Source: Candidatus Omnitrophota bacterium (GTDB taxonomy: Bacteria > Omnitrophota > Gorgyraeia > Zapsychrales > Fredricksoniimonadaceae). From it: a stretch of 64,000 nt of DNA. Made by a program: the position numbers and the translations under genes. Below the pieces are notes generated by a model. The model was not told the DNA's origin. It saw only the letters and a list, made by a program, of their open reading frames with translations, and searched no databases. This document shows, piece after piece, positions 30,870 through 61,400 of this stretch. The DNA lies in assembly GCA_044225175.1 (NCBI GenBank), contig JBGAJA010000001.1, forward strand, positions 6,994 through 70,993, in the 5' to 3' direction. Positions within the stretch are counted from its first letter, which is position 1. Each line of letters opens with the position of its first letter.

Positions 30870-32852
30870 ATGCCTAGAAATATTGATTTCAAACGAACCT
30901 TCCTCGTGGGGCTTCTCTGTGCTTTTATCTTAAACGTCCTGGGGCCATTGCCATCTAGGGCAGAGGAGTTTTATCTTCCTAAACCTGGGCAAATGGTCCA
31001 TTTAAGCCTTCTTGTGAACCCTCCTTTGCTCAAAGGAATCAAGGTCCATCCAGATAATCCTTTTATGTTCGATTTTATCCTAGATCAAGGGTCACGTTCC
31101 GTCGCTGATGCACATAAATTGAAGGAAGAGTCCAGCCGTCTAATCAAGTACTTTTTGGCCTCTTTAACCACCCCAGAAGCCGACCTATGGGTAAACCTAA
31201 GCCCCTATGAGAAAAACCGCATAGTCCCCGAAAGCTTTGGCCAAACCGAGATGGGCCGCGACCTTTTAGCCCAGGACTACATGCTCAAACAGATCACCGC
31301 CAGTCTGATGTATCCAGAAGAAGAGATTGGCCGTAAGTTTTGGAAGAGAATCTATGAAGAATCCGCCAAAAGGTATGGAACAACCAACATTCCAGTCAAC
31401 ACATTCAACAAGGTATGGATAGTCCCCGAGAAAGCCGTAGTCTATGAGAATGCAAAGGCCGGAACAGCCTATGTAGTGGAATCCAGGCTAAAGGTAATGT
31501 TGGAAGAAGACTACGTAGCCTCCAAAAAGGTGTCAGACACCTTTTTGAAGGGGCGGGTTGATAAAAAGGTGTCAGACACCTTTTTGCACAGTCAGATCAT
31601 ACGGGAGGTTGTTATTCCTGAATTGACTAAGGAGATCAATGAAGGGGCCAATTTTGTGCAGCTTAGGCAGGTTTATAGTTCTTTGATTCTAGCCACTTGG
31701 TACAAGAAGAAGATTAAAGATTCGATTTTGGCGCAGGTGTATGTCGATAAAAATAAAATCGTAGGGGTGGGTTCCAAACCCACCCAAGACCGGGCTGGTT
31801 TAGAACCAGCCCCTACGGATATTGAATTAATTTACCAACAATACCTCCAATCCTTCAAAAAAGGTGTCTATAACTACATCAAGGAAGAATCAGACCCGCT
31901 AACGAAACAACCTGTTCCCAGGAAATATTTCTCAGGAGGAGTTAATTTCTTTGGCGATTTGGCTATGAGTACTATAAACCAATTGCCTAATTCTGTGGGT
32001 CCAAAGAACCTGGCAATTGTGGGGGTACAAGTGCGTCCCGTTGATGAGCGAACGTCAGGGATTAAAAATTGGGATGATGTAGATATAGAGGGTTCCTTGC
32101 GACGTTTATTGAAAGTAGAGGAAAGGGAAGATGAAGGATTAGATCAAAAAATCAAAGAAGTGGCACTATTTATGAGTAAAGCTACTATTGGTAGATCTGC
32201 TGTTATGCGTCAAGTTTTAAATGATTTTGTGGATACGTATGGCATCAAAATGGAATTATTGCCTTCGACAACAAAGAAACAGTTATTGACAATCGTTATA
32301 AAAATAACAGGTCAACAAACGTATGAGGTATGGACAAGGTTTATTCAAGAAATAACACGGAAGTTCGGGATAGACATTCAAGAAATAGAAGAAGGACAGA
32401 AGCAGCAATTATTAACGGCTGGGCTGTATGTGGCATTAGGAAAGAAGAACAAGAAAGAAGGGGTGGTAGTATCGGATCAAGAAGAAGTATTTAATGATTT
32501 TCTAGTTTTTGTTAAGGAAACATTTGGGATTAGTGAGGAGGAACTAAGGTTAAAAGAAACAGAAGGAGGGCTTAAGTTAAGTGAGAAATTTCAAATGATC
32601 GTAGCTGGATATCATGTGTCTTTAGGCAAAGCCGAAGGATTAAATACATTTAAAGAGACAATCAAGACCATCCGAGAAACATTTGGGATTAGTGAGGAGG
32701 AACTAAGGTTAAAAGAAACAGAAGGAGGACTTAAGTTAAGTGAGAAATTCCAAATGATTGTAGCTGGATATCAGGTGTCTTTAGGCAAAGCCGAAGGATT
32801 AAATACATTTAAAGAGACAATCAAGACCATCTCGAGAAACATTTGGGATTAG
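30870..32852 (+). CDS. Giant-protein family member, N-terminal fragment. It has a signal peptide, the conserved family N-domain, and then 53-aa tandem repeats; the reading frame is lost at 32852.
   Basis: The signal peptide is MPRNIDFKRTFLVGLLCAFILNVLGPLPSRAEE. The N-domain is almost identical at protein level to the 48163 and 58422 paralogs (LIKYFLASLT.PE.DLWVNLSPYEKNRIVPESFGQTEMGRDLLAQDYMLKQITASL, PRKYFSGG). It ends with 2.5 in-frame copies of ETFGISEEELRLKETEGGLKLSEKFQMIVAGYHVSLGKAEGLNTFKETIKTIR. Confidence 0.75.
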   Translation: MPRNIDFKRTFLVGLLCAFILNVLGPLPSRAEEFYLPKPGQMVHLSLLVNPPLLKGIKVHPDNPFMFDFILDQGSRSVADAHKLKEESSRLIKYFLASLTTPEADLWVNLSPYEKNRIVPESFGQTEMGRDLLAQDYMLKQITASLMYPEEEIGRKFWKRIYEESAKRYGTTNIPVNTFNKVWIVPEKAVVYENAKAGTAYVVESRLKVMLEEDYVASKKVSDTFLKGRVDKKVSDTFLHSQIIREVVIPELTKEINEGANFVQLRQVYSSLILATWYKKKIKDSILAQVYVDKNKIVGVGSKPTQDRAGLEPAPTDIELIYQQYLQSFKKGVYNYIKEESDPLTKQPVPRKYFSGGVNFFGDLAMSTINQLPNSVGPKNLAIVGVQVRPVDERTSGIKNWDDVDIEGSLRRLLKVEEREDEGLDQKIKEVALFMSKATIGRSAVMRQVLNDFVDTYGIKMELLPSTTKKQLLTIVIKITGQQTYEVWTRFIQEITRKFGIDIQEIEEGQKQQLLTAGLYVALGKKNKKEGVVVSDQEEVFNDFLVFVKETFGISEEELRLKETEGGLKLSEKFQMIVAGYHVSLGKAEGLNTFKETIKTIRETFGISEEELRLKETEGGLKLSEKFQMIVAGYQVSLGKAEGLNTFKETIKTISRNIWD

Positions 32853-34260
32853 TGAGGAGGAACTAAGGTTAAAAAAGAAACAGAAGGAGGACTTAAGAGC
32901 AGTGAGAAATTCCAAATGATTGTAGCTGGATATCATGTGTCTTTAAGCAAAAGCGAAGGAGGAATACATTTAAAGAGACAATCAAGTGAGAAACATTTCC
33001 AAATGAGGAGGAATCGTTAAAAGAAACAGAAGGAGGACTTAAGTTAAGTGAGAAATTCCAAATGATCGTTGTAGCTAGATATGCGGTGTCTTTAGGCAAA
33101 GCTGAAGGATTAAATAAGGATTGAGAAACATTTGGGATTAGTGAGGAGGAATTAAGGTTAAAGAAACAGAAGGAGACTTAAGTTAAGTGAGAAATCCAAA
33201 ATGAGTAGCTGGATATCAGGTGTCTTTAGGCAAAGCCGAAGGATTAAATACATTTTCAAGTGAGGAGGAACTAAGGTTAAAAGAAACAGAAGGAGGACTT
33301 AAGTTAAGTGAGAAATTCCAGATCGGAGCTGGATACTAAGGTTAAAAGCTACAAGGACTTAAGAAATTCCGAAGGATTAATTCCCGAAACAAAGAGACAA
33401 TCAAGATAATTCGAGAAACATTTGGGATTAGTCTAAGGTTAAAAGAAACAGAAGGAGGACTTAAGTTAAGTGAGAAATTCCAAATGATCGTAGCTGGATA
33501 TCCGGTGAGTTTAGGCAAAGCCGAAGGATTAAATACATTTAAAGAGACAATCAAGATAATTCGAGAAACATTTGGGATTAGTGAGGAGGAACTAAGGTTA
33601 AAAGAAACAGAAGGAAACATTTGGGATTAGTGAGGAAGGATTAAATACATTTAAAAAGAGACAATCAAGATATAATTCGAGAAACATTTGGGATTAGGTG
33701 AGGAGGATTAAGGTTAAAAGAAAAGAGGACTTAAGTTATGGAGAAATTCCAAATGATCGTAGCTGGATATCAGTGTGTCTTTAAGGAAAGCCGAAGGATT
33801 AAATACATTTAAAGAGACAATCAAGATAATTCGAGAAACATTTGGGATTAGTGAGGAGGAACTAAGGTTAAAAGAAACAGAAGGAGGACTTAAGTTAAGT
33901 GAGAAATTCCAAATGATCGTAGCTGGATATAGTGTAGCTACAAGGAAAGCCGAAGGATTAAATACATTTAAAGAGACAATCAAGATAATCCGAGAAACAT
34001 TTGGGATAGTGAGGAATACAGGTTAAAAAGAAACAGAAGGAGGATTAAGTTAAGTGAGAAATTCCAAATGATTGAGCTGGATATCATGTGTCTTTAGGCA
34101 TTTGAAGGATTAAATACATTTTAGTCCGAGAAACATTTGGGATTAGTGAGGAGGAATTAAGGTTAAAAGAAACAGAAGGAGGACTTAAGTTAAGTGAGAA
34201 ATTCCAAATGATTGTAGCTGGATATCAGGTGTCTTTAGGCAAAGCCGAAGGATTAAATAT
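32517..34260 (+). repeat. Array of about 11 tandem 159-bp (53-aa) coding repeats. The first ~2.5 copies are in frame; the rest, 32853..34207, are heavily degraded by indels and rearrangements.
   Basis: The unit gaaacatttgggattagtgaggaggaactaaggttaaaagaaacagaaggagg...atcaagaccatccga recurs with period 159. Later copies carry deletions, scrambling and a variant (aagataattcga in place of aagaccatccga). Both flanks belong to one family gene. Confidence 0.85.
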
Positions 34261-35584
34261 ATTTAGGAGTAATTTGCAGGGGCAGGCACAAAAAATAGGG
34301 CCGAGACCTCAACAGCCGCTTGTGATACAAGGTTGGTTAAGCGCTATAGTTCAAGGGGTCAATAATAGTTATATCAAACGATATAGTTTTTCAATTCTTT
34401 CTATAGATCAAGCGATGAGAGTAACTACATCCCCTCTTCTAGAACGATTTGCAGCGCGCGCAATTGAAGAAGCTGATTTAACAGATGAGCATGTCGTTGA
34501 TGTGGTAGGAGGGAGATTTAACGAAGGATATGAATTCCCCAATGGTTTTCGACCAGGAAGAGTTTCGTTAGGTATGGGCCATGGATTGTCTACTGATCGA
34601 ATGATAGAAAGATGGCATGGTGCGGGAAGAGATAAGGTTGTATTTGAACGTCGAAATAGGCTCGGAAGAGTTAAGTCTCAAGTTCTTTGGGTAAAAATGA
34701 AATCGGCAGAGGAAGAAATTGCAGAATGGGAGAATAAAGGAGACCTTGATTTAGCAAGATTTTGGCTTGGTGAAATTAGGAGGCACGTCGTTAAAGATTC
34801 AAATGAAGGTTTTCAGTTAGCTACTGGCAGATTTGGAGAAAATCTTGAATTTTATGATGGTTTTAAACCTGGTCGTGTTGCAATGGGAGTGGGGCATATT
34901 TTAGATGGAGAAACACTAGCGCTGGAATGGCATGGTACAGGAAAAGATAAGATTATTTTTGAACGTCTAGATGCTGATGGAAAAGTGATTGCAAAAGTAT
35001 TATGGGTTAAGTTAAAGACGAAAAAAGGAGAACCTCCGCAATGGGAAAATAAGGGAGACTTTGAGTTGGCAAGGTTTTGGTTAGGTGAAATTAATCGCAT
35101 AGAGATAACCTCAACAATCGCTACAGAATTATATCAGGGAAGGTTTAATGCGGGATTTAGATTTGATGGGAATGGATATTTGGCTGGACAGGAGTATATG
35201 GGAATTGGTCATGGAGAGCCAGGGGACAGGATTTTTATGGATTGGATAGGAACGAGAAGAAATAGAGTGCAAATTAGTAGGGAACGTCGTTCTGAGGTTA
35301 TTATAACAGCAGAATGGTTTACGATCAGACAGCACAATGCGAAAGATTTGGATGAGTGGAACAGAGATCAAGCTCAAATATCTGAAACAGCAATATTTAC
35401 AAAAGGTGGTATTGATTTGACAGCCGATAAAACACCCTTGCAGATCCAAAATATTGAGGAGGGTATTCATTTTAAATTCGACCCTGCGATGATACAGAAA
35501 TTCCAAAATGCCCGTGGTTTTTACCCCGTGATTGTGAACATTATCCCACTGCAGGATGTAAGAGAATTTTTAGGTGCTTTGTAA
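34208..35584 (+). CDS. Giant-protein family member, C-terminal fragment. It opens with the tail end of the 53-aa repeat, then has three ~100-aa internal repeats and the conserved family C-terminal tail.
   Basis: It begins MIVAGYQVSLGKAEGLN, which is the repeat unit. The three internal repeats are GRFNEGYEFPNGFRPGRVSLGMGHG...VLWVKMK...WENKGDLDLARFWLGEI. The tail GGIDLTADK...GFYPVIVNIIPL lies at 35405..35581. Confidence 0.7.
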   Translation: MIVAGYQVSLGKAEGLNIFRSNLQGQAQKIGPRPQQPLVIQGWLSAIVQGVNNSYIKRYSFSILSIDQAMRVTTSPLLERFAARAIEEADLTDEHVVDVVGGRFNEGYEFPNGFRPGRVSLGMGHGLSTDRMIERWHGAGRDKVVFERRNRLGRVKSQVLWVKMKSAEEEIAEWENKGDLDLARFWLGEIRRHVVKDSNEGFQLATGRFGENLEFYDGFKPGRVAMGVGHILDGETLALEWHGTGKDKIIFERLDADGKVIAKVLWVKLKTKKGEPPQWENKGDFELARFWLGEINRIEITSTIATELYQGRFNAGFRFDGNGYLAGQEYMGIGHGEPGDRIFMDWIGTRRNRVQISRERRSEVIITAEWFTIRQHNAKDLDEWNRDQAQISETAIFTKGGIDLTADKTPLQIQNIEEGIHFKFDPAMIQKFQNARGFYPVIVNIIPLQDVREFLGAL

Positions 35585-36727
35585 TTCTTGTAAGACGATT
35601 TGCGCTGCGCGAAGAGAAGCTCCGGGTTCTCCCAAAGCGGTTTTGACCTTTCGTAGTTCTTCCACGATTTCTTTATTCTTTAGAATATCTTCCACATGAG
35701 TTGCAATATTTTCTGGATTACAGTCATTTTGAATAAGTTCAGGGACAATTTTTTTTCCAGCTACCACATTGACAAGGCCAATGTAGGGGATTTTAATGAC
35801 GTTTTTGGCAATGGCATAGGTAATCCAGGATGTTTTATAAATAATGACCATGGGTTTGCCTAGCAGTCCTGTTTCAAGTGTTGCAGTTCCTGAGGCGACA
35901 ATTGCGGCATCTATAGCATTGATCGCAGCATAAGGGTTTCCTTCAAATATTTTTAAAGGTAATGATGGGGGAATAAGGTTTTCTAAGGAACTTCTTTCAA
36001 TGGTGGATGCTTTTAATAGAAGGAATTGATAATTATTGTTCTTGGAATAAAGTTTTTGAGCTGCTTCAAGCATGGCTGGCAAATGCCTGTCTACTTCTTT
36101 GTGACGAGACCCAGGAAGAAGTCCGATTGTAATGCGTTCTTGGGAGGAGAGTCCAATGGATTGAAGGATATCTACAGGAGATTGCCAGCCAGAGGCTGGT
36201 CCGCCTTTGGCGGAAATTTCATCCACTAAGGGATGGCCGACATAATCGACGTTCATGCCAAACTTGGCATAGAGTTCTTTTTCGAAAGGAAAAAACACCA
36301 ACATACGATCAACAATTTTTTTAATTGTATGAATCCGTCCCTGACGCCAAGCCCAGACTTGAGGGCTAACGTAGTAGATCACCTTGATATGGCGTTTTTT
36401 AAGTTCACTGGCTAATCTTAGATTAAAGCCCGGATAATCAACCAGAACAACAGCATTAGGTTTGATGCGGTCAATTTCTGCAAGAGTATGCTCAAAGACT
36501 TTCTTAATGCGTCCAAGATTCTTAATAACTTCAGAAATACCAATAACTGCAAGAGACGTAATGTGCTCGAATAGCTCTACTCCCGCTTTCTGCATGCAAT
36601 CTCCGCCAACTCCAGAAAATTGAATATCGCTGGACAGGGACTTAAGGGCATTCACTAGTTCAGCTGCGCGCATATCGCCGGAGGCTTCGCCCGCTACTAT
36701 GATAATGTGCTTTTTTTGTGTTCCCAT
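35570..36727 (-). CDS. lpxB: Lipid-A-disaccharide synthase
   Basis: The N-terminus HIIIVAGEASGDMRAAELV is the LpxB signature and the GT-B fold length is 385 aa. The 3' end overlaps the convergent family gene by 15 nt. Confidence 0.9.
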   Translation of the reverse strand: MGTQKKHIIIVAGEASGDMRAAELVNALKSLSSDIQFSGVGGDCMQKAGVELFEHITSLAVIGISEVIKNLGRIKKVFEHTLAEIDRIKPNAVVLVDYPGFNLRLASELKKRHIKVIYYVSPQVWAWRQGRIHTIKKIVDRMLVFFPFEKELYAKFGMNVDYVGHPLVDEISAKGGPASGWQSPVDILQSIGLSSQERITIGLLPGSRHKEVDRHLPAMLEAAQKLYSKNNNYQFLLLKASTIERSSLENLIPPSLPLKIFEGNPYAAINAIDAAIVASGTATLETGLLGKPMVIIYKTSWITYAIAKNVIKIPYIGLVNVVAGKKIVPELIQNDCNPENIATHVEDILKNKEIVEELRKVKTALGEPGASLRAAQIVLQELQST

Positions 36728-37635: not shown

Positions 37636-37695
37636 GAAAAGGATAGTAACAAAGCCCTCGACAAAAGTCAAACCCCATAGTATTATCTGCGCTTA

Positions 37696-39492: not shown

Positions 39493-39510
39493 GACGATGC
39501 TTTTTCGCCT

Positions 39511-39539
39511 TGACACCATAAGTCCTTGTTGATACTATA
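39511..39539 (+). promoter_or_regulatory. Strong sigma70-like promoter TTGACA-17-TACTAT upstream of the HU-like gene
   Basis: The hexamers and 17-nt spacing are seen directly. The RBS TAGGAGG lies 9 nt before ATG at 39581. Confidence 0.55.
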
Positions 39540-39580
39540 GTTACGATTTTTCCGTTAGAAATTTTTAGGAGGCTATTGTT

Positions 39581-39853: not shown

Positions 39854-39868
39854 GGTTGGTCTCGTTTA

Positions 39869-42579: not shown

Positions 42580-42584
42580 GATCC

Positions 42585-42601
42585 GCCTTTGGCGGAAAAA
42601 A
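42585..42601 (+). repeat. Copy 1 of the recurring palindrome GATCCGCC-TTT-GGCGGA. Other copies are at 36199..36213 and 57741..57757.
   Basis: The exact 15-mer tccgcctttggcgga is shared, each time preceded by ggctg. This copy sits just after the aspS stop and is followed by an A8 run. Confidence 0.6.
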
Positions 42602-42621
42602 AATAATTAAGGAGAATAAAT

Positions 42622-44142: not shown

Positions 44143-44173
44143 TTCCTCAACTTTTTCTGTTGATCAAATCATC

Positions 44174-48144: not shown

Positions 48145-48162
48145 TATATAAATAGAGATCAT

Positions 48163-51100
48163 ATGAAAACCCCATTAACTATATTTATTTTAGTGAGTTT
48201 TATTGTTACAGGAACTATAGGCCCTATACCTGTTTCTGCAGAGGTAGGGGCGTATAGCAATACGCCTTTACATTTGCCAAAGCCTGGGGTAATGGTCCAT
48301 TTGAGCCCACCAGCTAATCCAGCAATGCTCAAAGGGATCAAGGTTCATCCAGATAATCCGTTTCGGTTTGAATTCATAATGGATGCGGGTGATCCTGTAG
48401 GGGCACGGCATGCCGTGCCCCTACGTGATGATGCCAGCAGATTAATCAAATATTTCCTCGCCTCATTAACTATACCCGAGCATGACCTCTGGGTGAACCT
48501 AAGTCCCTATGAAAAGAACCGTATAGTTCCTGAGAGCTTTGGCCAGACCGAGATGGGCCGAGATCTATTAGCCCAAGACTACATGCTCAAACAGATCACC
48601 GCGAGTCTTATATATCCTGAAGATGAGATAGGAAAGAGATTCTGGAAGAGAATCTATGAAGAAGCAGCCAAGAAATATGGAACAACGAATATACCTGTGA
48701 GTACATTCAATAAGGTATGGATAGTTCCTGACAAAGCTGGGATTTATAAAACAAATGATACAGCTTTTGTTGTTCAAAGCCATCTTAAGGTCATGGTTGA
48801 AGAAGATTATGTATCGGCCAATAAGGATAATGCAGCAGGAGTAAAAGCAGATGGTAGCCCGAAAACTAATGCCATAGGATCTCAAATTATACGTGAAATT
48901 ATCATTCCTGAATTGACCAAAGAAGTTAATGAAAACCAGAATTTTGCAAATTTACGCCAAATTTATAATTCTCTGATCCTTGCGACATGGTTTAAGAAAC
49001 ATTTGAAGAACAGCGTTTTAAATAAAATTTATGTAAACAAGAACAAGGTCTTTGGGGTGAATGTCGAAAATAGAAATGCAAAGGAAGAGATTTTTGCCCA
49101 GTATTTAACGGCATTCAAAAAGGGAGTTTACAATTATATTAAAGAGGAGCCGGACGTTATAACACAGCAAAAGGTTCCGAGAAAATATTTTTCTGGTGGA
49201 GCTCAATTTGGACAGGTTCCTAATATTCTCACACAAGACCACCTTATTTCTGAGGTTCGCTGCAGTCAGGCCATGCTTGTTTCAGTGAATTTGCAAGCTA
49301 GGAACGATCCTGCAATGCCAACAAGCAAAGAATCATCTAAGATGGGCAAACCTTTGGAAAGCATAGAAATTCCTCATATTTTTTTGAAGCCAAACTCCCG
49401 AATACCTTTGCAAATAGCTAATATTCGACAGGGAGTTTTTTTAGATGATGTGGCTAAAGAGGAATTAACTTTGCAGGATGTATCTTTACTGCAAAGAAAA
49501 ATAGTGCGTCTTAATAATGCTCAAGATGGTCAAGTGATTAGAGATTTTCTTAGGGCTGAAGAAAATCGGGATTATGCATCTGGAAAAGAACCCAGAATGA
49601 TTATTAAACGTATTAAAGATCAGACGTATATTCTTCCATATTCCTCTTACCATAAAGGAGCTTCGCCAGTTCTACTTAAAGTTCTCTCGCAAATGAATAT
49701 TCCTTCCAACGCTCAAGGGCCAGTTTTTTTTACGGATGTGTCTTATATTATAAACCAGAACGATCATCAGAAGATAGATTCGCTTACAGGCCATTTTGCG
49801 GGGACACAAATCTATCTTTTAAAAGCTGATTTTCTTTCTCTGATTGATTCCATGAGTCCAGAATCTAAGTTAAGGGAAATTATTCTTCAGCTTGTTTTAG
49901 AAGAATTATTTGGACAAACATCTCAGAGATCTAAAACTGTTAATTTGGAGGATCAATGGGGAAGGTTTAAAAATTTACTTGATGAGAATAAATTAGATCC
50001 TATCAATTCGATTTGTTTCTTAACTGAAAGGCACTTTATTGCCCCAGAGTTTTTTTTACACGAGTTAGAACAATGGAACATCCAAACAGTAACTTTAGAT
50101 CAAAGAGATGCGATTAATACGATTCTTCGATTTATTATCAATAATGATCCCAATGTTGAGAATTTAACGAGAGCAACAAAATTCTTATACAAAATGGATT
50201 CTCAAGCTGTAATTTCTTTAGCGAATTTGGAGACTACGTCTTTGGCTTTGGAACAAGATAGTCTTAATCAAATGAGTGCAGACGAAAAGATTAAATTTAT
50301 CTTAGTATTAACTCAATTGACTCAAGGAGAACATAGGCTTCATTTATTAATGAAAGCTTACAAAATATTTAAAGAAGCCAGAAATCTTGAGCAGTGGAGC
50401 AGAAAACAACGCTTGAAAGATATCAGTCTTGGATTTGCTCAAATAGGCGCTTATCAACAGGCCATTGAAGTCACGCTTAATGAAAAAGATCAGGATTTCG
50501 AAGTATTGTTTAATATAGCGGAAATTCAATGGAAAGCAGGTGATTGGGAAGGCGCGAATAGAACATTTGAAAAAGCTTTAACAATAGTTCAAGCTTCAGA
50601 CAGAATGCAGGATAGATACATTAATTTAATTTTAAGAATGACTAAAATACAGGGAGTTTCTCATCCTCAAGAGGCCAAAAGAACATTACAGCAACTAACA
50701 AATACACCATTCAATACTTTAATGCAAGTGGCTGTTGTTTTTGCCCGGCTAGGGTTTGAATATGATGCCAAAAATATGTTTCTTAAACTTCGAAGAAATG
50801 CATTGAGTTCAAAAGAAGGTTTAACAAGGCAAGCAGATGCGCTTAAGAAAATAGCCAAGCAGCAAATGGAAATTGGCTATAGTCCTCAAGCTACCCTGGA
50901 AGAATTAAGAAGAATTATTCGTCAAAAGGAAATTGGTTCAGGTTTGAATTGGAGGGTCTTCACTCTTATTGAGATTGTTAAGACAGAAATTAAAGAAGGT
51001 TTTGATTATGAACAAGACTTAAAATTAGCGCAACATTTGGCCGGATTTATAGACAAAGTTGATAGCTTTGAAATAATGAAATCCTTTGCTCAAATTGAAA

Positions 51101-54100
51101 TCATGATAGGAAAAGACGCTAGAAGCTATCTTCAAAAAGCCCAGGAAAGCTTTCGTGATGTTGAGGATTATCAGAAAAGAAAACCTCTAAATGAAATTAT
51201 TAAAATCCAGTTAGATGGTGGTTATTTGACCGAAGCTATAGAAACAATGGGGCTCATTAGAGGTGGGGTGGAGGGAGACTTGTATTCTCGTCTTATCATT
51301 CTTCTTGCAGAATCTGGACAGTATGAAGAGGCATTACAGCGCACCGGTGGCGAAACATTTGAAAAGATTATTAGTATTTATAAAAATAAACCTGGAAATC
51401 GTGCTGAAAAAGCCAGGATTAAAAGATTGTTGAACAATCTCAAAGAACTACGTGAAGAGAAGGAGACAAAAGAGAAAATAAGATATTGGAGCAAAATTGC
51501 AATGTGTCAAATAGACTTAGGGTTTAAGAAAGACGCTCAAGAGACTATCTCACAAGTTAAAGTTCTCATTGGGAAATTAGAAACACATGACAATATTGAT
51601 CGACCGGGTTATTGGCTATGGATGGCAGAACTGGAAATGAAAGCAGGAATCAAGGTTGATTTGAAAATTTTAACGAAAGAAGTGCTTTCTCTTACAAATA
51701 AGAAATATTATGAGAATTTTTCCTCAAAAACAGATGCATTATTGAGTTTAGCGAGAATTCTTCAAAAGAATAAGATGGATTCTACTGAGATTCTTAGAGA
51801 ATTTATTAACATCTGTGAAGAAGAGAGAAGTGACTCGGAAAATGAAGGGTATTATGAAGTTATTGATGCGTTAATTGAGTTGGGTCAATTTCAACGTGAA
51901 TTTGATTATGATGCGTCTAAAACGTACAGAACTGCCTATGGGCTCATTGATGGATCCTATTATGAAGATACCTCAAATGAAAGTAATTATTCTGAAGACA
52001 AAAATACTGACTTTAATAATGTAATGAAAGCCCAAATTAAAGCCGGTTATTTTAAAGATGCACTCACAACGATTGAGAGTCTTGAATATAACGATAAGAT
52101 TGCTGGTTATTTGAACATGTATAACACAGCTAAAAAATCTAATAAGCTTGATATCCAAAATCATGCCTTTAATCAACTATCCATTCAAGGTCAAAATTTT
52201 TCCTTTGGCGATATAACAGATGCCTCAACCGCAATTTTTTCACTTCCACGCATTCGATTTCTTGTTAAAGCTTATTTAGATGGGCAGATTAAGCTTGATC
52301 TTAAGAGTGTTCTCAATTTAATGAGAATTCTTGAAAGCGATTTGTTTTCTTTCGAAGATGGTATTATGGAACGGCGAGCTACTTTATTGCAGTTGACAGA
52401 GAGGGCTCTAAAGGAGAGGTATGGGAATATTCCTGAAATTGAAAATATTTTACGACGATTTTTTTCTAAGATAGAGCGCGACCAGGAAAGGTTTTCTAAA
52501 TCAGCTAATGACCCTAAAGCCCTTGAAGAATTAGGCAGGGAGCTAAGAAATCGGAATTTATCGTTGATTAATACTGTCAATTTAATTGAGCTCTACCACA
52601 TGTATTATCCGAAAATGTCTTACTTCTTGATTTGGCTTTTGACACAAGATGTGCATGTAAGACCCGTTGCAAATCTAAGATACGTTATTATGCAAGCATC
52701 CAGCCAAAAAGTATCTTATAAGCCGCTTCTTTTGTATCTATTACAAGCCCCTTATATTAGCCAGCGAGAGGAACGAGAGAAAGATTATACGAAACGCTGG
52801 CAGCTTTTGAAGAAATATAAAACATTGATGTCTCTTATTTCTCGTCTTGAGATAGAGCAATCTGTTGTCAGTGATATTATGAAGGATTTCTCAAGTGATT
52901 TTGATTTTACACGAACAGAGGAGTTTTTTAAAATAGGCATAAAGAAAGTTTTAGAGCAATATTTAGAAAAACCCCTAGATGACCTTCAAGAAATTAAGAA
53001 TGTGGATGAATTAGTGAATATATTAATTTATATGAAAAATATGTCTGGCGAAGATGATGATGGAGAGGATGAGGAGGGTAATCAAGGTGTATTAAAAGAA
53101 ATTATACATAAATATTTGACTTCTGGTTCAAAGGCGGCCTGGGATTATATAAAAACATTAGGAGGCAATGAAGATTATAAAGATGAAAAGAACTTTCTGG
53201 AAGGTCCAGGGGCCATGAAATTTGTTGTTAAGGAAGTAGAAGATGTAGAACAATTTATTCGTAGTAGAAAACAAATGCTTTATGAAGATATTAAGCGTCA
53301 TATGGAGTGGTTAAAGAATGATTACAGTAAAGATAAGAAGGTTGTAGATGCCATTGAGAAATTATCGATTCAATTCGGTGAGAATGTTGATGAGGATATT
53401 TTGAAAATCAAAACAATCCTTGCGGAGCTCAAAGCTAAAGAGCTGGGAAAGGGGGGTATTCAAAAGAGCAACAGCCATGCGAAAGACATGGAAGAGCGTA
53501 TTTTTAATATTCAGAATTTAAAAGCGCAAACTTTAAGGAATGTCACTGATGAAATCACAATTGATATTAGCCAAGATCCTATTGAAACTTTGCATTTAGG
53601 AGTTGGTTTTCCAAGTTGTTTAGACTGTATAGATGGAGAATACAAAGTCCATGCCTTTGAAAATCTTGTGGATTTAAATAAACGAGTGATTTATGTGAAA
53701 GATAGCCAAGGCAGACGCATTGGTCGTGTAGTTCTTGCTCTTGCAAAAGAAGGGGAAAAGAAAATTATTTTACCGATATCTATATTCTATACAAATACGA
53801 CGTTCGATTTAAATGGCCACATGTTGAGCTTTTTAAAAGCATACAGCCGCCATACGGGATATAATTTATTAATAACGAATAATATTATTTCTGGCTTACA
53901 AGGCCCTAAGCAGGAAGCGAACATTAAATTAGAAGAAGCGGTTGCAAGAACTATTTATTCTGATTTTGGTTTTGAAGTAGGAGAAGGAAGAATAAATGAG
54001 AGTGTCTGGCGTTATACCCCAGATGGGGCGATGAGTGTAGCTCAAAAACAAGAAGTTGGTGGTATTGATTTAAATCCTACAGCCATAACTATGCTTGAAA

Positions 54101-54258
54101 GCGGACAGGATATTCAGATGAAAATTCCTGCTGATTTGAAAAATTTAGAAACTCTGCAATTTGATGGCTTTATTCCTGTCATTATTAATATCACTCCCAT
54201 TGTAAACTTGCCTCTTTTTTTAGGATCAAATCAAGCCCAAGAAGTCGTTACTCATTAG
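48163..54258 (+). CDS. Giant-protein family member (2031 aa). It has a signal peptide, the conserved family N-domain, a long alpha-helical (TPR/solenoid-like) central region, and the conserved family C-terminal tail.
   Basis: The signal peptide is MKTPLTIFILVSFIVTGTIGPIPVSA. The N-domain carries ~55 aa that are nearly invariant against the 30870 copy (LIKYFLASLTIPEHDLWVNLSPYEKNRIVPESFGQTEMGRDLLAQDYMLKQITASL), plus YNYIKEEP and PRKYFSGG. The tail GGIDLNPTAIT...GFIPVIINITPIVNLPLFLG lies at 54058..54255. Confidence 0.85.
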   Translation: MKTPLTIFILVSFIVTGTIGPIPVSAEVGAYSNTPLHLPKPGVMVHLSPPANPAMLKGIKVHPDNPFRFEFIMDAGDPVGARHAVPLRDDASRLIKYFLASLTIPEHDLWVNLSPYEKNRIVPESFGQTEMGRDLLAQDYMLKQITASLIYPEDEIGKRFWKRIYEEAAKKYGTTNIPVSTFNKVWIVPDKAGIYKTNDTAFVVQSHLKVMVEEDYVSANKDNAAGVKADGSPKTNAIGSQIIREIIIPELTKEVNENQNFANLRQIYNSLILATWFKKHLKNSVLNKIYVNKNKVFGVNVENRNAKEEIFAQYLTAFKKGVYNYIKEEPDVITQQKVPRKYFSGGAQFGQVPNILTQDHLISEVRCSQAMLVSVNLQARNDPAMPTSKESSKMGKPLESIEIPHIFLKPNSRIPLQIANIRQGVFLDDVAKEELTLQDVSLLQRKIVRLNNAQDGQVIRDFLRAEENRDYASGKEPRMIIKRIKDQTYILPYSSYHKGASPVLLKVLSQMNIPSNAQGPVFFTDVSYIINQNDHQKIDSLTGHFAGTQIYLLKADFLSLIDSMSPESKLREIILQLVLEELFGQTSQRSKTVNLEDQWGRFKNLLDENKLDPINSICFLTERHFIAPEFFLHELEQWNIQTVTLDQRDAINTILRFIINNDPNVENLTRATKFLYKMDSQAVISLANLETTSLALEQDSLNQMSADEKIKFILVLTQLTQGEHRLHLLMKAYKIFKEARNLEQWSRKQRLKDISLGFAQIGAYQQAIEVTLNEKDQDFEVLFNIAEIQWKAGDWEGANRTFEKALTIVQASDRMQDRYINLILRMTKIQGVSHPQEAKRTLQQLTNTPFNTLMQVAVVFARLGFEYDAKNMFLKLRRNALSSKEGLTRQADALKKIAKQQMEIGYSPQATLEELRRIIRQKEIGSGLNWRVFTLIEIVKTEIKEGFDYEQDLKLAQHLAGFIDKVDSFEIMKSFAQIEIMIGKDARSYLQKAQESFRDVEDYQKRKPLNEIIKIQLDGGYLTEAIETMGLIRGGVEGDLYSRLIILLAESGQYEEALQRTGGETFEKIISIYKNKPGNRAEKARIKRLLNNLKELREEKETKEKIRYWSKIAMCQIDLGFKKDAQETISQVKVLIGKLETHDNIDRPGYWLWMAELEMKAGIKVDLKILTKEVLSLTNKKYYENFSSKTDALLSLARILQKNKMDSTEILREFINICEEERSDSENEGYYEVIDALIELGQFQREFDYDASKTYRTAYGLIDGSYYEDTSNESNYSEDKNTDFNNVMKAQIKAGYFKDALTTIESLEYNDKIAGYLNMYNTAKKSNKLDIQNHAFNQLSIQGQNFSFGDITDASTAIFSLPRIRFLVKAYLDGQIKLDLKSVLNLMRILESDLFSFEDGIMERRATLLQLTERALKERYGNIPEIENILRRFFSKIERDQERFSKSANDPKALEELGRELRNRNLSLINTVNLIELYHMYYPKMSYFLIWLLTQDVHVRPVANLRYVIMQASSQKVSYKPLLLYLLQAPYISQREEREKDYTKRWQLLKKYKTLMSLISRLEIEQSVVSDIMKDFSSDFDFTRTEEFFKIGIKKVLEQYLEKPLDDLQEIKNVDELVNILIYMKNMSGEDDDGEDEEGNQGVLKEIIHKYLTSGSKAAWDYIKTLGGNEDYKDEKNFLEGPGAMKFVVKEVEDVEQFIRSRKQMLYEDIKRHMEWLKNDYSKDKKVVDAIEKLSIQFGENVDEDILKIKTILAELKAKELGKGGIQKSNSHAKDMEERIFNIQNLKAQTLRNVTDEITIDISQDPIETLHLGVGFPSCLDCIDGEYKVHAFENLVDLNKRVIYVKDSQGRRIGRVVLALAKEGEKKIILPISIFYTNTTFDLNGHMLSFLKAYSRHTGYNLLITNNIISGLQGPKQEANIKLEEAVARTIYSDFGFEVGEGRINESVWRYTPDGAMSVAQKQEVGGIDLNPTAITMLESGQDIQMKIPADLKNLETLQFDGFIPVIINITPIVNLPLFLGSNQAQEVVTH

Positions 54259-54342
54259 TAATCAAGATTTAAGAATTTTCTCGATATCTTGTTGCATGCA
54301 AAGCATAGACAAAGGATAATGTCTTCAAACCAGGAGGAAGAC

Positions 54343-56460: not shown

Positions 56461-56466
56461 GTTAAT

Positions 56467-57021
56467 ATGAAACAAGAAACAAAGAAAAAGATTTTGATGT
56501 CACTTTTGGTTTTATTAGCTCTTGTTTTTGCAGCTGGAGTGGGCTGGCTCATTTATTATATGAGCCAGGTTAAGGAGTATAAGGACAGTGAGCATAAATT
56601 CTCAATAGTGTACCCTTCCAAATGGGAGAAGAATGAGCGATATTTGGGAACGGCGGTTGCCTTTGTCCGTCCCAAACAAACAGCCCTTGATGTGTTTTCT
56701 CCTAATGTAAATATCTCTGTTCAAGATGTCCCTGATGAAATTGCGACCCTTAAAAGTTTCTCTGAAACAATCACTAAACAAATGACTACTGTCTTTCAGA
56801 AAAATATCACTATTGTCAAAGACCAAGACATGGATTTTGGCGGCAGGAAAGGGCATATATTAGTCGTGAATGCGCCCCAGCCGCAGAATCTAAAATCCAT
56901 CTTTGTATGGACTATTAAAGGCTCAAAAGGCTATATTTTTACGTTCATGTCCCGGATTGATCAATACAAGGAAGTCGAACCTTTGGTCGATCGAATGATA
57001 CATTCCTTCAAGCTACAATAA
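56467..57021 (+). CDS. Hypothetical membrane-anchored periplasmic protein (184 aa)
   Basis: An N-terminal TM/signal anchor LMSLLVLLALVFAAGVGWLIYY is followed by a beta-rich domain. I could not assign a family. Confidence 0.4.
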   Translation: MKQETKKKILMSLLVLLALVFAAGVGWLIYYMSQVKEYKDSEHKFSIVYPSKWEKNERYLGTAVAFVRPKQTALDVFSPNVNISVQDVPDEIATLKSFSETITKQMTTVFQKNITIVKDQDMDFGGRKGHILVVNAPQPQNLKSIFVWTIKGSKGYIFTFMSRIDQYKEVEPLVDRMIHSFKLQ

Positions 57022-57023
57022 CC

Positions 57024-57051
57024 TTCTGAACCTGCGAGGTTCCAGAAGGCG
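57024..57051. terminator. Imperfect hairpin CCTTCTGAACC-tgcga-GGTTCCAGAAGG between convergent genes; bidirectional terminator
   Basis: Seen directly. It sits in the 30-nt gap between the stops of 56467..57021 (+) and 57052..57696 (-). Confidence 0.5.
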
Positions 57052-57696
57052 TTATCCCATCCGTTCGTTCAAGAATTCTTCCAGGGAAGAGCATTGCAGG
57101 TAATAATTGGTTTGTTTTTGATGGCCTATGGTATCGGTCGGGGTAGGGCCATAGTTATGGCCTGGCCAGATTGTAGTCTCATTGGGAAGCTTCATTAAGA
57201 TATTATAAAGGCTGTTGTACATGACTTTGGCGTCCCCACCAGGCAAATCGCAGCGTCCGCATCCGTCGATAAAAAGGGCATCCCCGCTTAGTAATTGCCC
57301 TTGAGATAGAAAGCACTGACACCCTGGGGTGTGCCCAGGGGTATGAATGGTATTAAAGGTAATTGATCCAAGGGTAAGGGTCTCTTTGTCAGAGACTGGA
57401 TTTAAGTTTCTTAGATTTCGAGTCAAAAATGGCGCTTCGTGTTTAGATATATACACAGGAACATCGTGATGCCGCAGAAGTTCTTCTAAACCGTTCACAT
57501 GGTCAGGGTGGGCATGGGTTAGAAAGACTTTGGTGATTTTATAGCCCATATTTTTGGACTGCTGTATTAAGAATGGCACATCCCAGGCGGGATCAACAAT
57601 GGCCATTTCTTTGGTTTGTGGATCTCCAAGAAGATAGAGAAAATTATTTAGAGGTCCGATTTCGTATTGTTTAATGACCAGTGAGTTGCTTGACAT
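57052..57696 (-). CDS. MBL-fold metallo-hydrolase (glyoxalase II / hydroxyacylglutathione hydrolase-like)
   Basis: The motif HxHxDH (THAHPDHVNG) is present, with downstream His/Asp ligands (HTPGHTPG, DALFIDGCGRCD), in a protein of 214 aa. Confidence 0.7.
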   Translation of the reverse strand: MSSNSLVIKQYEIGPLNNFLYLLGDPQTKEMAIVDPAWDVPFLIQQSKNMGYKITKVFLTHAHPDHVNGLEELLRHHDVPVYISKHEAPFLTRNLRNLNPVSDKETLTLGSITFNTIHTPGHTPGCQCFLSQGQLLSGDALFIDGCGRCDLPGGDAKVMYNSLYNILMKLPNETTIWPGHNYGPTPTDTIGHQKQTNYYLQCSSLEEFLNERMG

Positions 57697-57740
57697 AGGT
57701 ATGTATCCTTTTATAATGACAACGTTTCAGCTGGAGGCTG

Positions 57741-57757
57741 ATCCGCCTTTGGCGGAT
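57741..57757 (+). repeat. Copy 3 of the recurring palindrome GATCCGCC-TTT-GGCGGA, in the divergent intergenic region between the MBL hydrolase and the Trx-like gene
   Basis: gaggctgatccgcctttggcggatttc. This shares 22/23 nt with the intragenic copy at 36192..36217. Confidence 0.6.
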
Positions 57758-57793
57758 TTCATAAATAATATAGGAAATTTCGGAGGTAATCAA

Positions 57794-58345
57794 ATGGCTT
57801 TATTAGAGTCTATCAAAATTCCACTAGGAACATTAATGCCGGATTTTGAGCTTAAAGATGCTCTTGGCAAATCATATAAGGGAAGTGAGCTTTATGGGGA
57901 GAGGGGATTGCTGGTTGTGTTCACATGTAATCACTGTCCTTATGCGATTGCCGTTTGGCCCCGAGTGATTCAGTTGGCTAAATATGGCCTTGGAATGAGA
58001 GTCAACACCGTTGCCATCAACCCTAATATTAACCCTGAATTTCCAGACGATGCCCCAGATAAGATGGTTGAGAAAATCAAAGAATTAGGCATCGAATTCC
58101 CCTATTTAGTCGATGAAACCCAAAGAACTGCTGATGCCTTCAAAGCCCAATGCACCCCTGACATTTACCTATTTAATAAAGAAAAGAAATTAGTCTACCA
58201 CGGTCGTATTGATGACAACTGGAAAGACGAAAGCAAAGTCACCCGCGAAGAACTCAAAGAAGCCATGAACAACATGGCCGCCGGCCGCCCCATCGACGTC
58301 AAACAAATGCCATCTATGGGCTGTTCGATCAAATGGCTATCGTAA
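57794..58345 (+). CDS. Thioredoxin-fold protein (AhpC/TSA-like thiol-disulfide oxidoreductase)
   Basis: A CxxC motif in the context FTCNHCPY is present. The start is set at the ATG preceded by GGAGG (57780-84); the longer track ORF from 57674 lacks an RBS and overlaps the divergent promoter region. Confidence 0.55.
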   Translation: MALLESIKIPLGTLMPDFELKDALGKSYKGSELYGERGLLVVFTCNHCPYAIAVWPRVIQLAKYGLGMRVNTVAINPNINPEFPDDAPDKMVEKIKELGIEFPYLVDETQRTADAFKAQCTPDIYLFNKEKKLVYHGRIDDNWKDESKVTREELKEAMNNMAAGRPIDVKQMPSMGCSIKWLS

Positions 58346-58356
58346 GGCCCTCTAAC

Positions 58357-58385
58357 TTGACAAGGCTATACCCATAGGGCATACT
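58357..58385 (+). promoter_or_regulatory. Candidate promoter TTGACA-17-CATACT(TT) upstream of the 1403-aa paralog
   Basis: Seen directly. It parallels the element at 48115..48144. Confidence 0.4.
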
Positions 58386-58421
58386 TTGACCAAAGCGATC
58401 AAATACACTTTGGAGAATATT

Positions 58422-61400
58422 ATGTCCCCATTAACCTTAATAGTTTTAAAGTCTATGCGTCATTCTGTCCGTAAGGGCGTTTCTATCGTTATTTTAGTGG
58501 CTTTTATGGCTACTACCGTAAAGACTCCAGCTAATGCTCAATTAGCCCCTTGGATGCCAAAACCTGGGGAAATGGTCCATTTAAGCGCTGATTTCACACC
58601 CGCACACCTTAAGGGTTTGGTCATTCACCCTGAAAATCCACTTAAATTTGACTTCATCATTTATAAAGGTGATGAACGTTTATCCTCCCAAGATAAGCAG
58701 GTTATTTATAAAAATTTAATCAAATACTTCATGGCTTCTCTGGCTGTTCCTGATGACAATCAATGGGTGAACCTTTCTCCCTATGAAAAGAACCGTGTGA
58801 TTGAAGGGGATTTTGGGAAGACGGAAATGGGACGTGACCTTCTGGCCCAAGATTACCTCTTAAAACAAATCACCGCTTCTCTTATATATCCTGAAGACAG
58901 TTTAGGTAAGAAATTCTGGGACAAGGTCTATTCCCAGGCCCAGCAACAATTTGGCAGCACTGCTATCCCTGTGAATACCTTTAATAAGGTTTGGATTGTT
59001 CCGGCTGATGCTCTTGTGTATGAATCAGGCAATACAGCTTATGTCTTGAAGAATCATTTAAAGGTCATGTTGGAAGAGGATTACATGTCTCTGACCAAGC
59101 ACAGTGGGATTAAAAATGTCCCTTCTGATCATGGTAAAGGTGTTAATAAAATAGGCAGTCAAATCGTCCGCGAAATTGTCCTTCCGGCCCTTGAAAAGGA
59201 AGTCAATGAAGGAAAGAATTTTGCTAATTTGCGTCAGGTTTACAGTGGGATGATTCTGGCCGCATGGTATAAGAGGGCTTTGAAAGAATCTTTGTTAGGA
59301 AGAATTTACGCGGATAAAGCCAAAGTCAAAGGAATTGACCAGAACCCTAAGAATAATGAGAAAATTTATCAGCAGTATCTTAAAGCTTATAAAAAAGGGG
59401 TCTTCAACTATATCAAAGAAGATACAGACAAATATTCCAAGCAATCCATTCCAAGAAAATACTTCTCTGGTGGAGCAACAGGATTTGGTGATTTAAGAGC
59501 CAACCTTGCCGTAACATCCAACTCCAGTCAAGCTAACCAAGCCATGTCCGCAGATATCAACAAATCAGGCTTAGATGCTGCCCATGCTGTTTTAGCTGAA
59601 CAAAAAGAAGCTGATAGCGCCATGATCTTAAACGAAAACCAGGTCAGACGTATTGTGGAAGAAAAAGGTGTTTTAGAATTTATCAAAGTATTAGAAAATG
59701 AAGGATTAAGCCTTGTTTCTCATCCTACAGAATCGACTGCAGATAAAATTATTGTTGTAGATGGTAATCGTATTCAATTTGACGTTAATCCAAACCTGTC
59801 TAAGGGACGCTTGTTTCAAATCAAATCTTCGGGCGTAATTCAAGGGTGGCTTTCGAACAAGTTTATTTATATTAAGAATTGGGACGAAATTGTCCGAGAT
59901 GATTTTATGAAAAGGATTGTCAATGTTCCAGGCCAGTCTATTGAAAAATATTTGGAAACATTGGGTCTGAAAGTTTCTGCGGTGACAGATGTGGTTGACC
60001 GAAGAAAATTGCTTAATGATTTAGATTCTCGCAGTAAGTATATGTATTACAGAATTGATCCTTTAGGTGAAGCTGTTAAAGACTCACGAGTCATAGCATT
60101 AGAAGGAAAGATTATTGCCATCGCTATTGGCCAAAAAGAGCCAATTAAGAAAAAAACACCGCTTTTCTTAGAACCCAGATTAGATATGAAGAATAGTTGG
60201 GGGGATCTAATTGTTTCAGCTTCTTTGTCCTCAGACGGTAATAAACTTGTAATTCTCGATTACAATGGAAGAGCTTCATTGTTGAATACAAGAACTGGAG
60301 AAGAGATAGAAGCTCGGGTCTTAACTGCGGGAGATTCCCTGTTTTACGTGGCTACAATTTCTCCTGATGGTAAGTTGATTGCCACCATAGATGGTAGAAA
60401 TGCTTTAAAGCTATGGGATATGGAAACTCAGAAAGTGATTAAAGAGATGGAAGAATTGAGATTTTTTTCTAGTAGTTTTCAACTTACATTCTCACCAGAT
60501 AGTAAGACATTTATAGTTCAAGGGAGTAGAGGAGAAGGGCTTTTATTTGATATAGCTCATAGTAAGCCCATGGTTGAACTTAGATTTTCTGATCGTTATA
60601 CAAATACAGTTTTCTCACCGGACGGCCAAAAGTTTGCACTTGTAGAAAAATACAATGTGATTTTCTTCGATACGAGGACAGGAAAAGAACTTCATCGATT
60701 AGGGATGAAGGATCATATCCATGTTGTTACCTTCTCGCCAGATGGTAAGAAGCTCGTGGTAGGTTTCTATGATGGTGGGGTTAAGCAATTTGATATTGAT
60801 AGTAACACTGAAGAGTGGTTTCTTAATGAACAGAGAGTTCAGAAAATTGGTTTTACAAAAGATGGTACGAATATTGTGACGGTCAATATTGAAGGAGAAG
60901 TCCGTATATGGAATGCGAATAATAGAGAAAAGATCAATGAATTCCAAACTGAATCACGTTCTGATGGGCCTTATCTAGGTAGTTTTCTGGCAGAAGATAA
61001 TCAAAGTATTGTGAGAGCAGATAAGTCAAAGATAAGAATATATGATATCCCAATCGCTACGCTCAAATCCAATGAAGAACAAGATTTGTCTGTTGAGGCA
61101 GATGAGGAAACCATGACTATTGTTGGCTCCGATGGCCAAAGCCGTGGATTTGAGAAAAGAGGAACCAAGTGGGAACAGGTCTCTAAAGGTCCTAGTGAAG
61201 GGAATCCAAATTTAAGATTTAAAATAAATAATGATGGTCAATTCCTAACAATAGGGGATCCAGACGGCACAGGAATCACAAAGATCTATCAGCGCTCAGC
61301 TGATGGTAAAAGTTTCGAATTGAGGACCTCTTTAGCTCCAGACTCCGGCCCAATCATGCAAGTCTCCGACACTACAGGAGAGATAGAAGGGCAAAATAGT

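Follow-up and report, generated by a model that had tools for sequence, protein, structure and literature searches.

Constant head and tail domains frame exchangeable modules in a family of predicted secreted proteins of Omnitrophota

Results

Three genes with a common head domain

Omnitrophota are uncultured, ultra-small bacteria that are thought to be predators or parasites. On the 64,000 nucleotides analysed here (positions 6,994 to 70,993 of contig JBGAJA010000001.1, assembly GCA_044225175.1; hereafter the window), three plus-strand genes of a Candidatus Omnitrophota bacterium, A (30870-32852), B (48163-54258) and C (58422-62597, with an alternative TTG start at 58386), share an N-terminal domain of approximately 320 aa, which we call the head. 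When each 400-aa N-terminus was compared with the window by tblastn, exactly three head copies were found, with identities of 61% over 367 aa for A and B (E 1e-139), 51% over 357 aa for A and C (E 1e-115) and 50% over about 382 aa for B and C (E 1e-120). The first-pass annotation of this DNA had proposed such a domain in three paralogues, and these values bear it out; all the motifs it quoted are found in the three-way alignment, which has 170 invariant columns. The similarity is not confined to the signal peptide, since it starts approximately 5 aa past the predicted cleavage site and continues to PRKYFSGG (aa 36-357 of A). Genes B and C are intact and encode 2,031 and 1,391 aa, while A would encode about 1,570 aa if repaired; 'giant', as the proteins had been called, is a generous label for these sizes.

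The three genes have a similar layout. Gene A begins with a predicted Sec signal peptide (aa 1-31, 30870..30962, cleaved between PSRA and EEF according to the family statistics), followed by the head (aa 32-357, EEFYLPKPG...PRKYFSGG, 30963..31940; alignment and tblastn), a D-L-A-M motif just past the head (31956..31967), an array of about 11 copies of a 159-bp tandem repeat (32517..34265; Tandem Repeats Finder) and a C-terminal open reading frame (ORF; 34208..35584, also seen by tblastn) with a D-Q-A-M motif (34406-34417) and a conserved tail (35405-35581; tblastn). Gene B carries a predicted signal peptide of the family pattern (aa 1-26, 48163..48240, PVSA before EV), the head up to PRKYFSGG (48241..49200; tblastn, alignment and AlphaFold2 model m85ef8019273e), a D-P-A-M motif (49306..49317), a variable and largely helical cargo of about 1,570 aa (49318..54021) that is TPR-like by weak Pfam matches to TPR_12 and TPR_2 below the curated cut-offs, a D-G-A-M motif (54022..54033) and the tail (GGIDLN...PVIINITPI...FLGS..., 54058..54255; tblastn). 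Gene C has a predicted signal peptide of the same pattern (aa 1-39, 58422..58538, PANA before QL), the head (58539..59474; tblastn and alignment), a linker (59535..59624) with N-Q-A-M at 59535-59546 and D-S-A-M at 59613-59624, a WD40-type beta-propeller matched by many Pfam beta-propeller families (60189..61211, best E 2.5e-21), a D-A-A-M motif between cargo modules (61890..61901), a D-P-A-M motif just before the tail (62373..62384) and the tail itself (GGIDFN...PVIINITPI..., 62397..62594; tblastn). Thus a [DN]-x-A-M motif lies at the head/cargo and cargo/tail junctions of all three genes, and at one further internal junction in C.

The head copies have diverged greatly at silent sites. By the Nei-Gojobori method over approximately 305 head codons, the proportions of synonymous differences (pS) for the three pairs are 0.82, 0.86 and 0.73, which is saturated, and those of nonsynonymous differences (pN) are 0.22, 0.30 and 0.30; dN is 0.26-0.38 against a dS of at least 2.6 or undefined, and omega is well below about 0.15. 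In an in-frame core (A 31140-31322, B 48442-48624), 57 of 61 residues are identical and the first, second and third codon positions differ at 3, 2 and 29 sites, respectively. The silent divergence described earlier is therefore real, but it affects about half of the third positions rather than nearly every one, and the intervals given for it, 31141..31320 and 48441..48620, were off frame by 1-2 nt. Gene B is 61-67% identical to proteins of other assemblies and 61% identical to its neighbour A; because B is no closer to A than to those proteins, the duplication is old. These sequence comparisons support the view, also taken by the first-pass annotation, that the head copies are old, selectively maintained paralogues under purifying selection and neither recent duplicates nor conversion tracts.

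Signal peptides were inferred by a heuristic count over 129 complete N-termini of the family. The n-region is net positive in 120 of them. Uncharged runs have a median length of 12 residues, too few to span a membrane as an anchor, and the segment ends in G-P-x-P-x-A-x-A followed by Q-[DE]-F. Position -3 is A in 80 and V in 26 of the 129 N-termini, and position -1 is A in 105. This is the classical signal peptidase I pattern, from which Sec export is predicted. The Omnitrophota tail has no hydrophobic anchor, lipobox or sortase-type signal.

Family size and the constant tail

A search of 5.8 billion proteins with the head gave 1,417 matches; among the best 120, every named one is 'hypothetical' and nearly all come from Candidatus Omnitrophica/Omnitrophota. 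With a profile, 8,347 of 1.84 billion cluster representatives matched at E <= 1e-3, and 6,705 of them also reached E <= 1e-30. Among the 150 listed of these 8,347, the head is always N-terminal (residues about 1-400) and the protein is 435-2,915 aa long. The consensus of 141 representatives clustered at 50% consists of the head, a middle that cannot be aligned, and a tail of approximately 65 aa (GGIDLTxxNxxLQTQNxGxxIKFHxDPAMLxQLQNAPGFVPVIIxIQPxxxLxxFLGL), with about 70 invariant columns. The tail lies within 45 aa of the C-terminus in 126 of the 141 head-bearing representatives, and the others look truncated. In the reverse direction, a scan of genome DNA with the tail gave 76 loci, all in Omnitrophota metagenome-assembled genomes (MAGs) or in otherwise-labelled MAGs with the same genes, and five MAGs contain at least 6-9 of the fetched tail loci each. 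The loci hold 87 tail-bearing frames, of which 58 have a head, 19 lie at a locus edge and are undecidable, and 10 have none; at least 2 of these 10 are split genes with a head ORF directly upstream. A head therefore stands at the start of 58 of the 68 decidable tail ORFs. A tail-profile search of the protein database returned only fragments of 51-139 aa.

The design of constant head, variable middle and constant tail, which had been suggested from the three window genes, is thus upheld across hundreds of homologues, and head and tail do occur together; the size of the family, the linker and the toxin-linked actinobacterial homologues described below had been overlooked. Term searches in the Omnitrophota papers and preprints that were consulted gave no account of the head, the tail or the [DN]xAM linker. 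What is new here is the head domain, the framing by head plus tail, and the [DN]xAM rule; the constant-carrier/variable-payload kind of system was already known.

The minimal member, P0109 (438 aa, complete in two samples), consists of head and tail only, with no cargo. It lies directly upstream of a 1,110-aa paralogue (L077 2704-7425), so that tandem family genes are possible, and a BrnT-like toxin gene is located just upstream of P0109 in the same locus. We also compared the tail with the N-terminus of the head; the likeness is limited to eight residues, GIK(F/V)HxD, and is not significant (P 0.058). The label 'Planctomycetales', 'Alphaproteobacteria' or 'Minisyncoccia' is attached to some of the carriers (L003, L004, L006, L007, L019 and others; P0085), and one actinobacterial-type homologue, P0461, comes from a eukaryotic transcriptome set. 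These labels probably reflect mislabelled bins or contamination and not the true host range.

Linker motif and module exchange

The motif D.AM occurs 491 times in 266 sequences, as compared with 21.8 occurrences expected from shuffles. When only the cargo is counted, over 60 complete genes, the enrichment is 22.5-fold for D.AM and 7.7-fold for N.AM, whereas other substitutions reach at most 4-fold with few counts. Family ORFs contain 233 motifs against 10.6 expected, and neighbouring non-family ORFs contain 11 against 14.2 expected; the motif is family-specific. Its flanks are not conserved. The spacing of the motifs is bimodal, with distances of 6-54 aa (tandem sites in linkers) and of 118-1,572 aa (domain-size or larger), and Pfam domains fall between the sites. 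Many heads end in FSGG-x-D-x-A-M, so that the motif runs on from a GG-x-D-(L/F) element. The tail begins with this element too (GGIDLT), and it recurs on both sides of the Actinomycetota domain described below. 'SGG', which had been singled out as a motif of its own, is the start of this recurring element, often in the form GG-x-D-x-A-M. A second conserved D-P-A-M is located inside the tail (FHxDPAML).

Two family members, P0125 and P0128, have in common a 323-aa kinase-ATPase module of 98% identity, whose two ends coincide exactly with GD.AM and LDRAM; identity is 88% between their heads and 70% between their tails, and their remaining modules are unrelated. Where modules are shared, 32% of the alignments begin no more than 10 aa from a motif, as compared with 6% at random. 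Whole modules are thus exchanged at [DN]xAM motifs, as shown by one clear pair and, for the others, by a statistical trend.

The motif uses all four Ala codons and both Asp codons, and Asn replaces Asp, which indicates selection on the peptide. A Shine-Dalgarno-like sequence upstream of the motif is not enriched (18% versus 13%), a weak test because only about one third of the window gene starts examined show such a sequence. The Ala codon of the motif is GCG in 39-48% of sites, as compared with about 21% in other Ala-Met pairs and overall (L001-L076 and the window), and the base preceding this codon is G in 43-55% of sites. Selection on the peptide does not account for this GCG/G bias at the nucleotide level.

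Variable cargo

Between head and tail there are one to about ten modules, which are unrelated to one another; only 17 pairs among the 141 representatives have any module in common. Most cargo has no Pfam match. The Pfam matches obtained are S-adenosylmethionine (SAM) methyltransferases, HATPase_c, Response_reg, HTH, GGDEF, GT1, Fic, cytidine/MafB19-like deaminase, HEAT, pentapeptide and FHA, that is, mostly domains of cytoplasmic or effector type (enzymes, regulators, Fic and deaminase).

Head fold and conserved residues

By hmmscan at E <= 0.1, neither the head nor the tail of the three window genes matched Pfam-A or NCBIfam, and the same holds for 86 further members at E <= 1e-5. The head has no sequence relative in the PDB, and the tail gave E >= 0.41 at best in a PDB profile search. 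The earlier statement that the head cannot be assigned to a known family accordingly holds. In the AlphaFold2 model m85ef8019273e of the B head (43 sequences; predicted local distance difference test score (pLDDT) 70, predicted template modelling score (pTM) 0.68), the signal helix leads into a long beta-hairpin and three helices, after which come another long beta-hairpin and approximately four more helices (five with a short one). Part of the most conserved stretch, WVNLSPYEKxR...TEMGRDLL, falls in a loop of lower confidence. On this model the head would provisionally be regarded as having no known fold. Comparison of its two halves by hhalign gave a probability of 1.4%, and an internal duplication was rejected.

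The residues kept in both Omnitrophota and Actinomycetota include N109, E114, R117, T126, R130, D136, K140, E210, N254, R263, Y266 and Y312; there is no Ser, His or Cys among them. Of the two roles proposed earlier for the head, catalysis and ligand binding, this set is no less compatible with the second than with the first. Since the set is rich in Arg, Lys, Asp, Glu and Asn, the head might bind a conserved and probably anionic ligand, either of the envelope or of a partner, and not act as a classical hydrolase, although this residue pattern is a weak indication.

Distant homologues in Actinomycetota

A tblastn search of plasmids with the head gave six Streptomyces megaplasmids (best 28.6% identity over 83% of the head, E 6e-30). 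A phage or plasmid origin of the family was rejected; there was no phage match, and the plasmid matches are Streptomyces megaplasmids that carry a distant homologue. The homologue of S. fungicidicus, WP_121549542, is a hypothetical protein of 773 aa without Pfam or NCBIfam match, which is 29% identical to the head over 259 aa (BLASTP, E 8e-36) and has the same signature motifs. It is composed of a signal peptide, an N-terminal region of approximately 340 aa, GGIDFT, the homologous domain, GGVDLS, a Ser/Gly-rich linker and a C-terminal membrane anchor. A search with its domain gave 116 proteins, nearly all the named ones from Actinomycetota, and the hidden Markov model (HMM) of the Omnitrophota head matches all 61 of the longer actinobacterial proteins at HMM positions about 95-350 (best 25 of the 61, E 1e-33 to 1e-44). 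In these proteins a variable N-terminus comes first, GG-x-D-F stands approximately 50 aa ahead of the core and GG-x-D-L immediately behind it; what follows is DUF11, an LPXTG/LAXTG signal, or a membrane anchor whose tail is Arg-rich. Several have an N-terminal XOO_2897-like deaminase or Tox-REase-5; XOO_2897-like deaminases are toxin domains of polymorphic toxin systems (PMC3239186). The first approximately 33 tail residues of the Omnitrophota proteins resemble the GGIDF segment before the actinobacterial core (hhalign P 3.4e-4, probability 38%), which is suggestive only because the actinobacterial segments were picked by motif. Separately, the Streptomyces domain query gave a weak match (E 9e-7, 38% coverage) to P0499, a protein of 300 aa from Haloechinothrix that carries the annotation Imm52 immunity protein; a fusion, a neighbour effect or mere chance may lie behind it.

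Gene A, a fourth tail and the gene neighbourhood

Gene A as deposited is not intact. Its head ORF stops at 32852 and its tail lies in the separate ORF 34208-35584, each of these flanking ORFs being intact, and between them the approximately 11 copies of the 159-bp (53-aa) repeat at 32517-34265 contain many frame changes in three-frame translation. The public record likewise gives gene A as 660 aa. Because the array shifts frame many times, gene A is either a (recent) pseudogene or a product of misassembled repeats. The earlier picture of three genes was thus right as to the three heads and missed this disruption. The C-terminal part of gene A at 34208-35400 contains three repeats of approximately 120 aa (GRFNEGYEFPNGFRPGRV...WENKGDLDLARFWLGEI) without Pfam match.

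By tblastn, the window contains four copies of the constant tail. The fourth, at 7408-7614, belongs to a plus-strand ORF (1..7617, >2,538 aa) that runs off the left end of the window and has beta-propeller-like repeats and an extra internal GGIDL at 5326-5340. As its start is outside the window, the presence of a head is undecidable.

The neighbouring genes are a MoxR/DUF58/BatA-D operon, lpxB, an ABC exporter, hisS, aspS, phoH, mreD, PBP2, fadJ-like, PsbP-like, peroxiredoxin and fur; the fadJ-like gene is downstream of B, fur is downstream of C, and lpxB is on the other strand beside A. The head genes are scattered among such housekeeping genes along the chromosome and form neither an island nor an operon. 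A complete MoxR/DUF58/BatA/BatB/TPR/BatD operon of aerotolerance type occupies 23821-30817 and ends 52 bp upstream of gene A. In the 76 tail loci, the only recurring gene clusters are housekeeping families and a mixed tyrosine-recombinase/XerCD-like cluster, whose ORFs are found within about 10 kb of family genes in 10 loci (L002, L010, L014, L022, L024, L026, L038, L062, L075 and L076). The latter mixes proteins of housekeeping size and integrase size, and its position relative to the family genes is not fixed.

Discussion

What the head does may be considered from the architecture of the family. We consider it an even call that the family is a polymorphic one of secreted effectors or toxin carriers, in which the head acts as constant carrier or targeting part. 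The toxin-type domains found beside the distant relatives of the head in Actinomycetota also speak for a payload of effectors or toxins. According to this reading of the sequences, each protein would be made with a cleavable Sec signal peptide; the mature protein starts with the head of approximately 320 aa and ends with the tail of approximately 65 aa, both held by strong purifying selection. The one to about ten unrelated modules between them, parted by the family-specific [DN]-x-A-M linker, are swapped as wholes among family members at the motifs, as one clear pair and a trend elsewhere indicate. Head and tail would then supply export, anchoring or targeting, possibly including delivery to another cell, and the middle would supply the variable payload, with the [DN]xAM sites as putative points of recognition or processing at the borders of the payload units. 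That the proteins act in another cell is argued mainly, and only indirectly, from the presence of payloads of cytoplasmic type behind a signal peptide.

Several observations weigh against this reading. Many cargo domains, such as GGDEF, the kinase ATPase and the SAM methyltransferases, require cytoplasmic cofactors, and their place behind a signal peptide would be explained only by a site of action in another cell. Few toxin domains can be recognised in the cargo: 2 of the 92 Omnitrophota members scanned have one, the first a Fic domain and the second a match to both deaminase models. Both belong to one set of 35 proteins, and the remaining 57 gave none. Unlike classical polymorphic toxins, the family varies internally and keeps its C-terminus constant. 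In Actinomycetota the toxin domain is N-terminal of the homologous domain, so the geometry of the 'carrier' differs. No immunity-like gene or dedicated transporter is conserved beside the family genes in the window and the 76 loci, and clustering of 1,028 ORFs from these loci gave no convincingly recurring neighbour, no partner gene and no recurrent family of small ORFs. The idea that the tail folds onto the head was tried on P0109 with AlphaFold2 and rejected, as the tail stayed below pLDDT 50 without docking. Likewise, the absence of a known fold for the head is provisional because its model is of moderate confidence (pLDDT 70). Finally, secretion, processing and delivery are themselves predictions from sequence.

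Of the other explanations, the one that survives best is a surface coat or adhesin, in which head and tail would serve to anchor the proteins on the cell's own envelope or to polymerise them there, with the middles displayed for adhesion and nothing delivered. The window cargo, a WD40 propeller, TPR-like helices and tandem repeats, would suit such a display, and the actinobacterial homologues are surface proteins anchored by sortase or transmembrane segments. The likeness between the tail start and the actinobacterial GGIDF segment could permit head-to-tail strand exchange, and surface 'coat' and adhesion roles have been proposed for large Omnitrophota proteins (PMC10066038). However, the cargo that matches Pfam would make little sense on a surface, the Omnitrophota tail carries none of the anchoring signals sought, and AlphaFold2 gave no head-tail contact. 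We therefore regard surface display as unlikely.

A bolder extension of the carrier reading is that head and tail constitute a new Sec-dependent payload system, in which Omnitrophota would export strings of cytoplasmic-type enzymes and regulators that undergo cutting or recognition at [DN]xAM and then enter host or prey cells. The tail, as a repeat of the GGIDL hairpin with which the head-type domain begins, would dock into the head of another molecule or into a dedicated receptor, and the same ancient domain would serve surface-anchored toxins in Actinomycetota. Taken as a whole, this is a quite unlikely scenario.

The head could also be an enzyme itself, acting for instance on an envelope polymer, with the middles as accessories. 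Its extreme conservation (about 70 invariant columns over 141 representatives), the acidic residues E114, D136 and E210 and the basic residues R117, R130, K140 and R263 kept across phyla, and the cargo-free P0109 are all compatible with this. On the other hand, the head matches no enzyme family or fold and has no conserved Ser, His or Cys, and an enzymatic head leaves thousands of unrelated payloads and the second constant element at the C-terminus unexplained. An enzyme head seems to us very unlikely.

The head might instead be a cis-acting processing domain that cleaves [DN]xAM or GG-x-D-(L/F) and sets the modules free, much as releasing peptidases do in polytoxins and in MARTX toxins. These motifs do flank the domain in both phyla, as FSGG-x-D-x-AM after the Omnitrophota head and as GGIDF before and GGVDL after the actinobacterial domain, and [DN]xAM is confined to head-carrying proteins. 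But there is neither a protease-like catalytic set nor a protease fold, P0109 has no such motif, and cleavage at FHxDPAML would cut the conserved tail itself. A processing head is accordingly highly improbable.

Least probable of all is that [DN]xAM acts as a nucleic-acid-level signal, either as internal translation starts giving cytoplasmic, signal-less modules or as recombination joints: the motif does end in ATG, over-uses GCG for its Ala and marks the sites of module exchange, but Shine-Dalgarno sequences are not enriched (weakly informative, as their use in the genome is partial), and its varied Ala and Asp codons and the Asn for Asp point to selection on the peptide.

Among known systems, the carrier reading comes close to polymorphic toxins and 'polytoxins' (Zhang, Iyer and Aravind; PMC3482391, PMC3239186), which are secreted multidomain proteins with a conserved trafficking part and a diverse, recombining payload. 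Deaminase and Fic payloads occur in both, several payload modules may be present in one protein as in polytoxins, and the actinobacterial homologues of the head carry XOO_2897-like deaminase or Tox-REase-5. A conserved N-terminal part, signal peptide plus head, is present in 150 of the 150 matches listed. In contrast, polymorphic toxins have the variable toxin at the extreme C-terminus, where the present family has the constant tail (126 of 141) with its modules internal, and they have an immunity gene immediately downstream, which was not found at the window genes or the 76 loci. Moreover, most payloads here fall outside known toxin families, the trafficking domain is undescribed and the genes lie among housekeeping genes.

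MARTX toxins resemble the family, by analogy only, in having constant N- and C-terminal regions around exchangeable effector modules with short processing sites between them. They differ in using type I secretion, glycine-rich repeats and a cysteine protease domain (CPD), whereas the family here has a Sec-type signal and no RTX or CPD match in Pfam and NCBIfam scans. TpsA proteins likewise have a Sec signal followed by a conserved domain of about 250-300 aa (TPS) on large, variable exoproteins. However, the head has no Pfam TPS/haemagglutination match, there is no TpsB-like neighbour in the window, and the model of the head, with about 8 helices and two beta-hairpins, is not a beta-helix. Substrates of the type IX secretion system (T9SS) combine an N-terminal Sec signal and a conserved C-terminal element of about 65-80 aa with any middle, as here, but the tail has no Pfam/NCBIfam match to the T9SS C-terminal domain and no confident AlphaFold2 fold, and T9SS substrates do not show a conserved head.

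The 'Archaeovorin'-type giants (bioRxiv 10.1101/2023.11.21.568195; 10.64898/2026.06.07.730766) belong to the same phylum, have a signal peptide and strings of cytoplasmic-type domains (methyltransferase, HATPase_c, GGDEF, HEAT/TPR), and have likewise been proposed to interact with other cells. They are, however, 10-100 times longer and have many transmembrane helices and C39/S8 peptidase or dockerin domains.

In conclusion, we found that a constant head and a constant tail frame exchangeable modules in a family that may be among the largest gene families of Omnitrophota, since its 50%-identity clusters number in the thousands and the 64-kb window alone has three or four copies. The [DN]xAM linker provides a simple sequence rule for dividing these proteins into functional units, and their payloads make up a large collection of candidate effectors whose folds are mostly unknown. 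The actinobacterial homologues would offer a culturable system, Streptomyces, for the shared domain. Constant ends around recombining payloads give a testable handle on the interaction biology of Omnitrophota.

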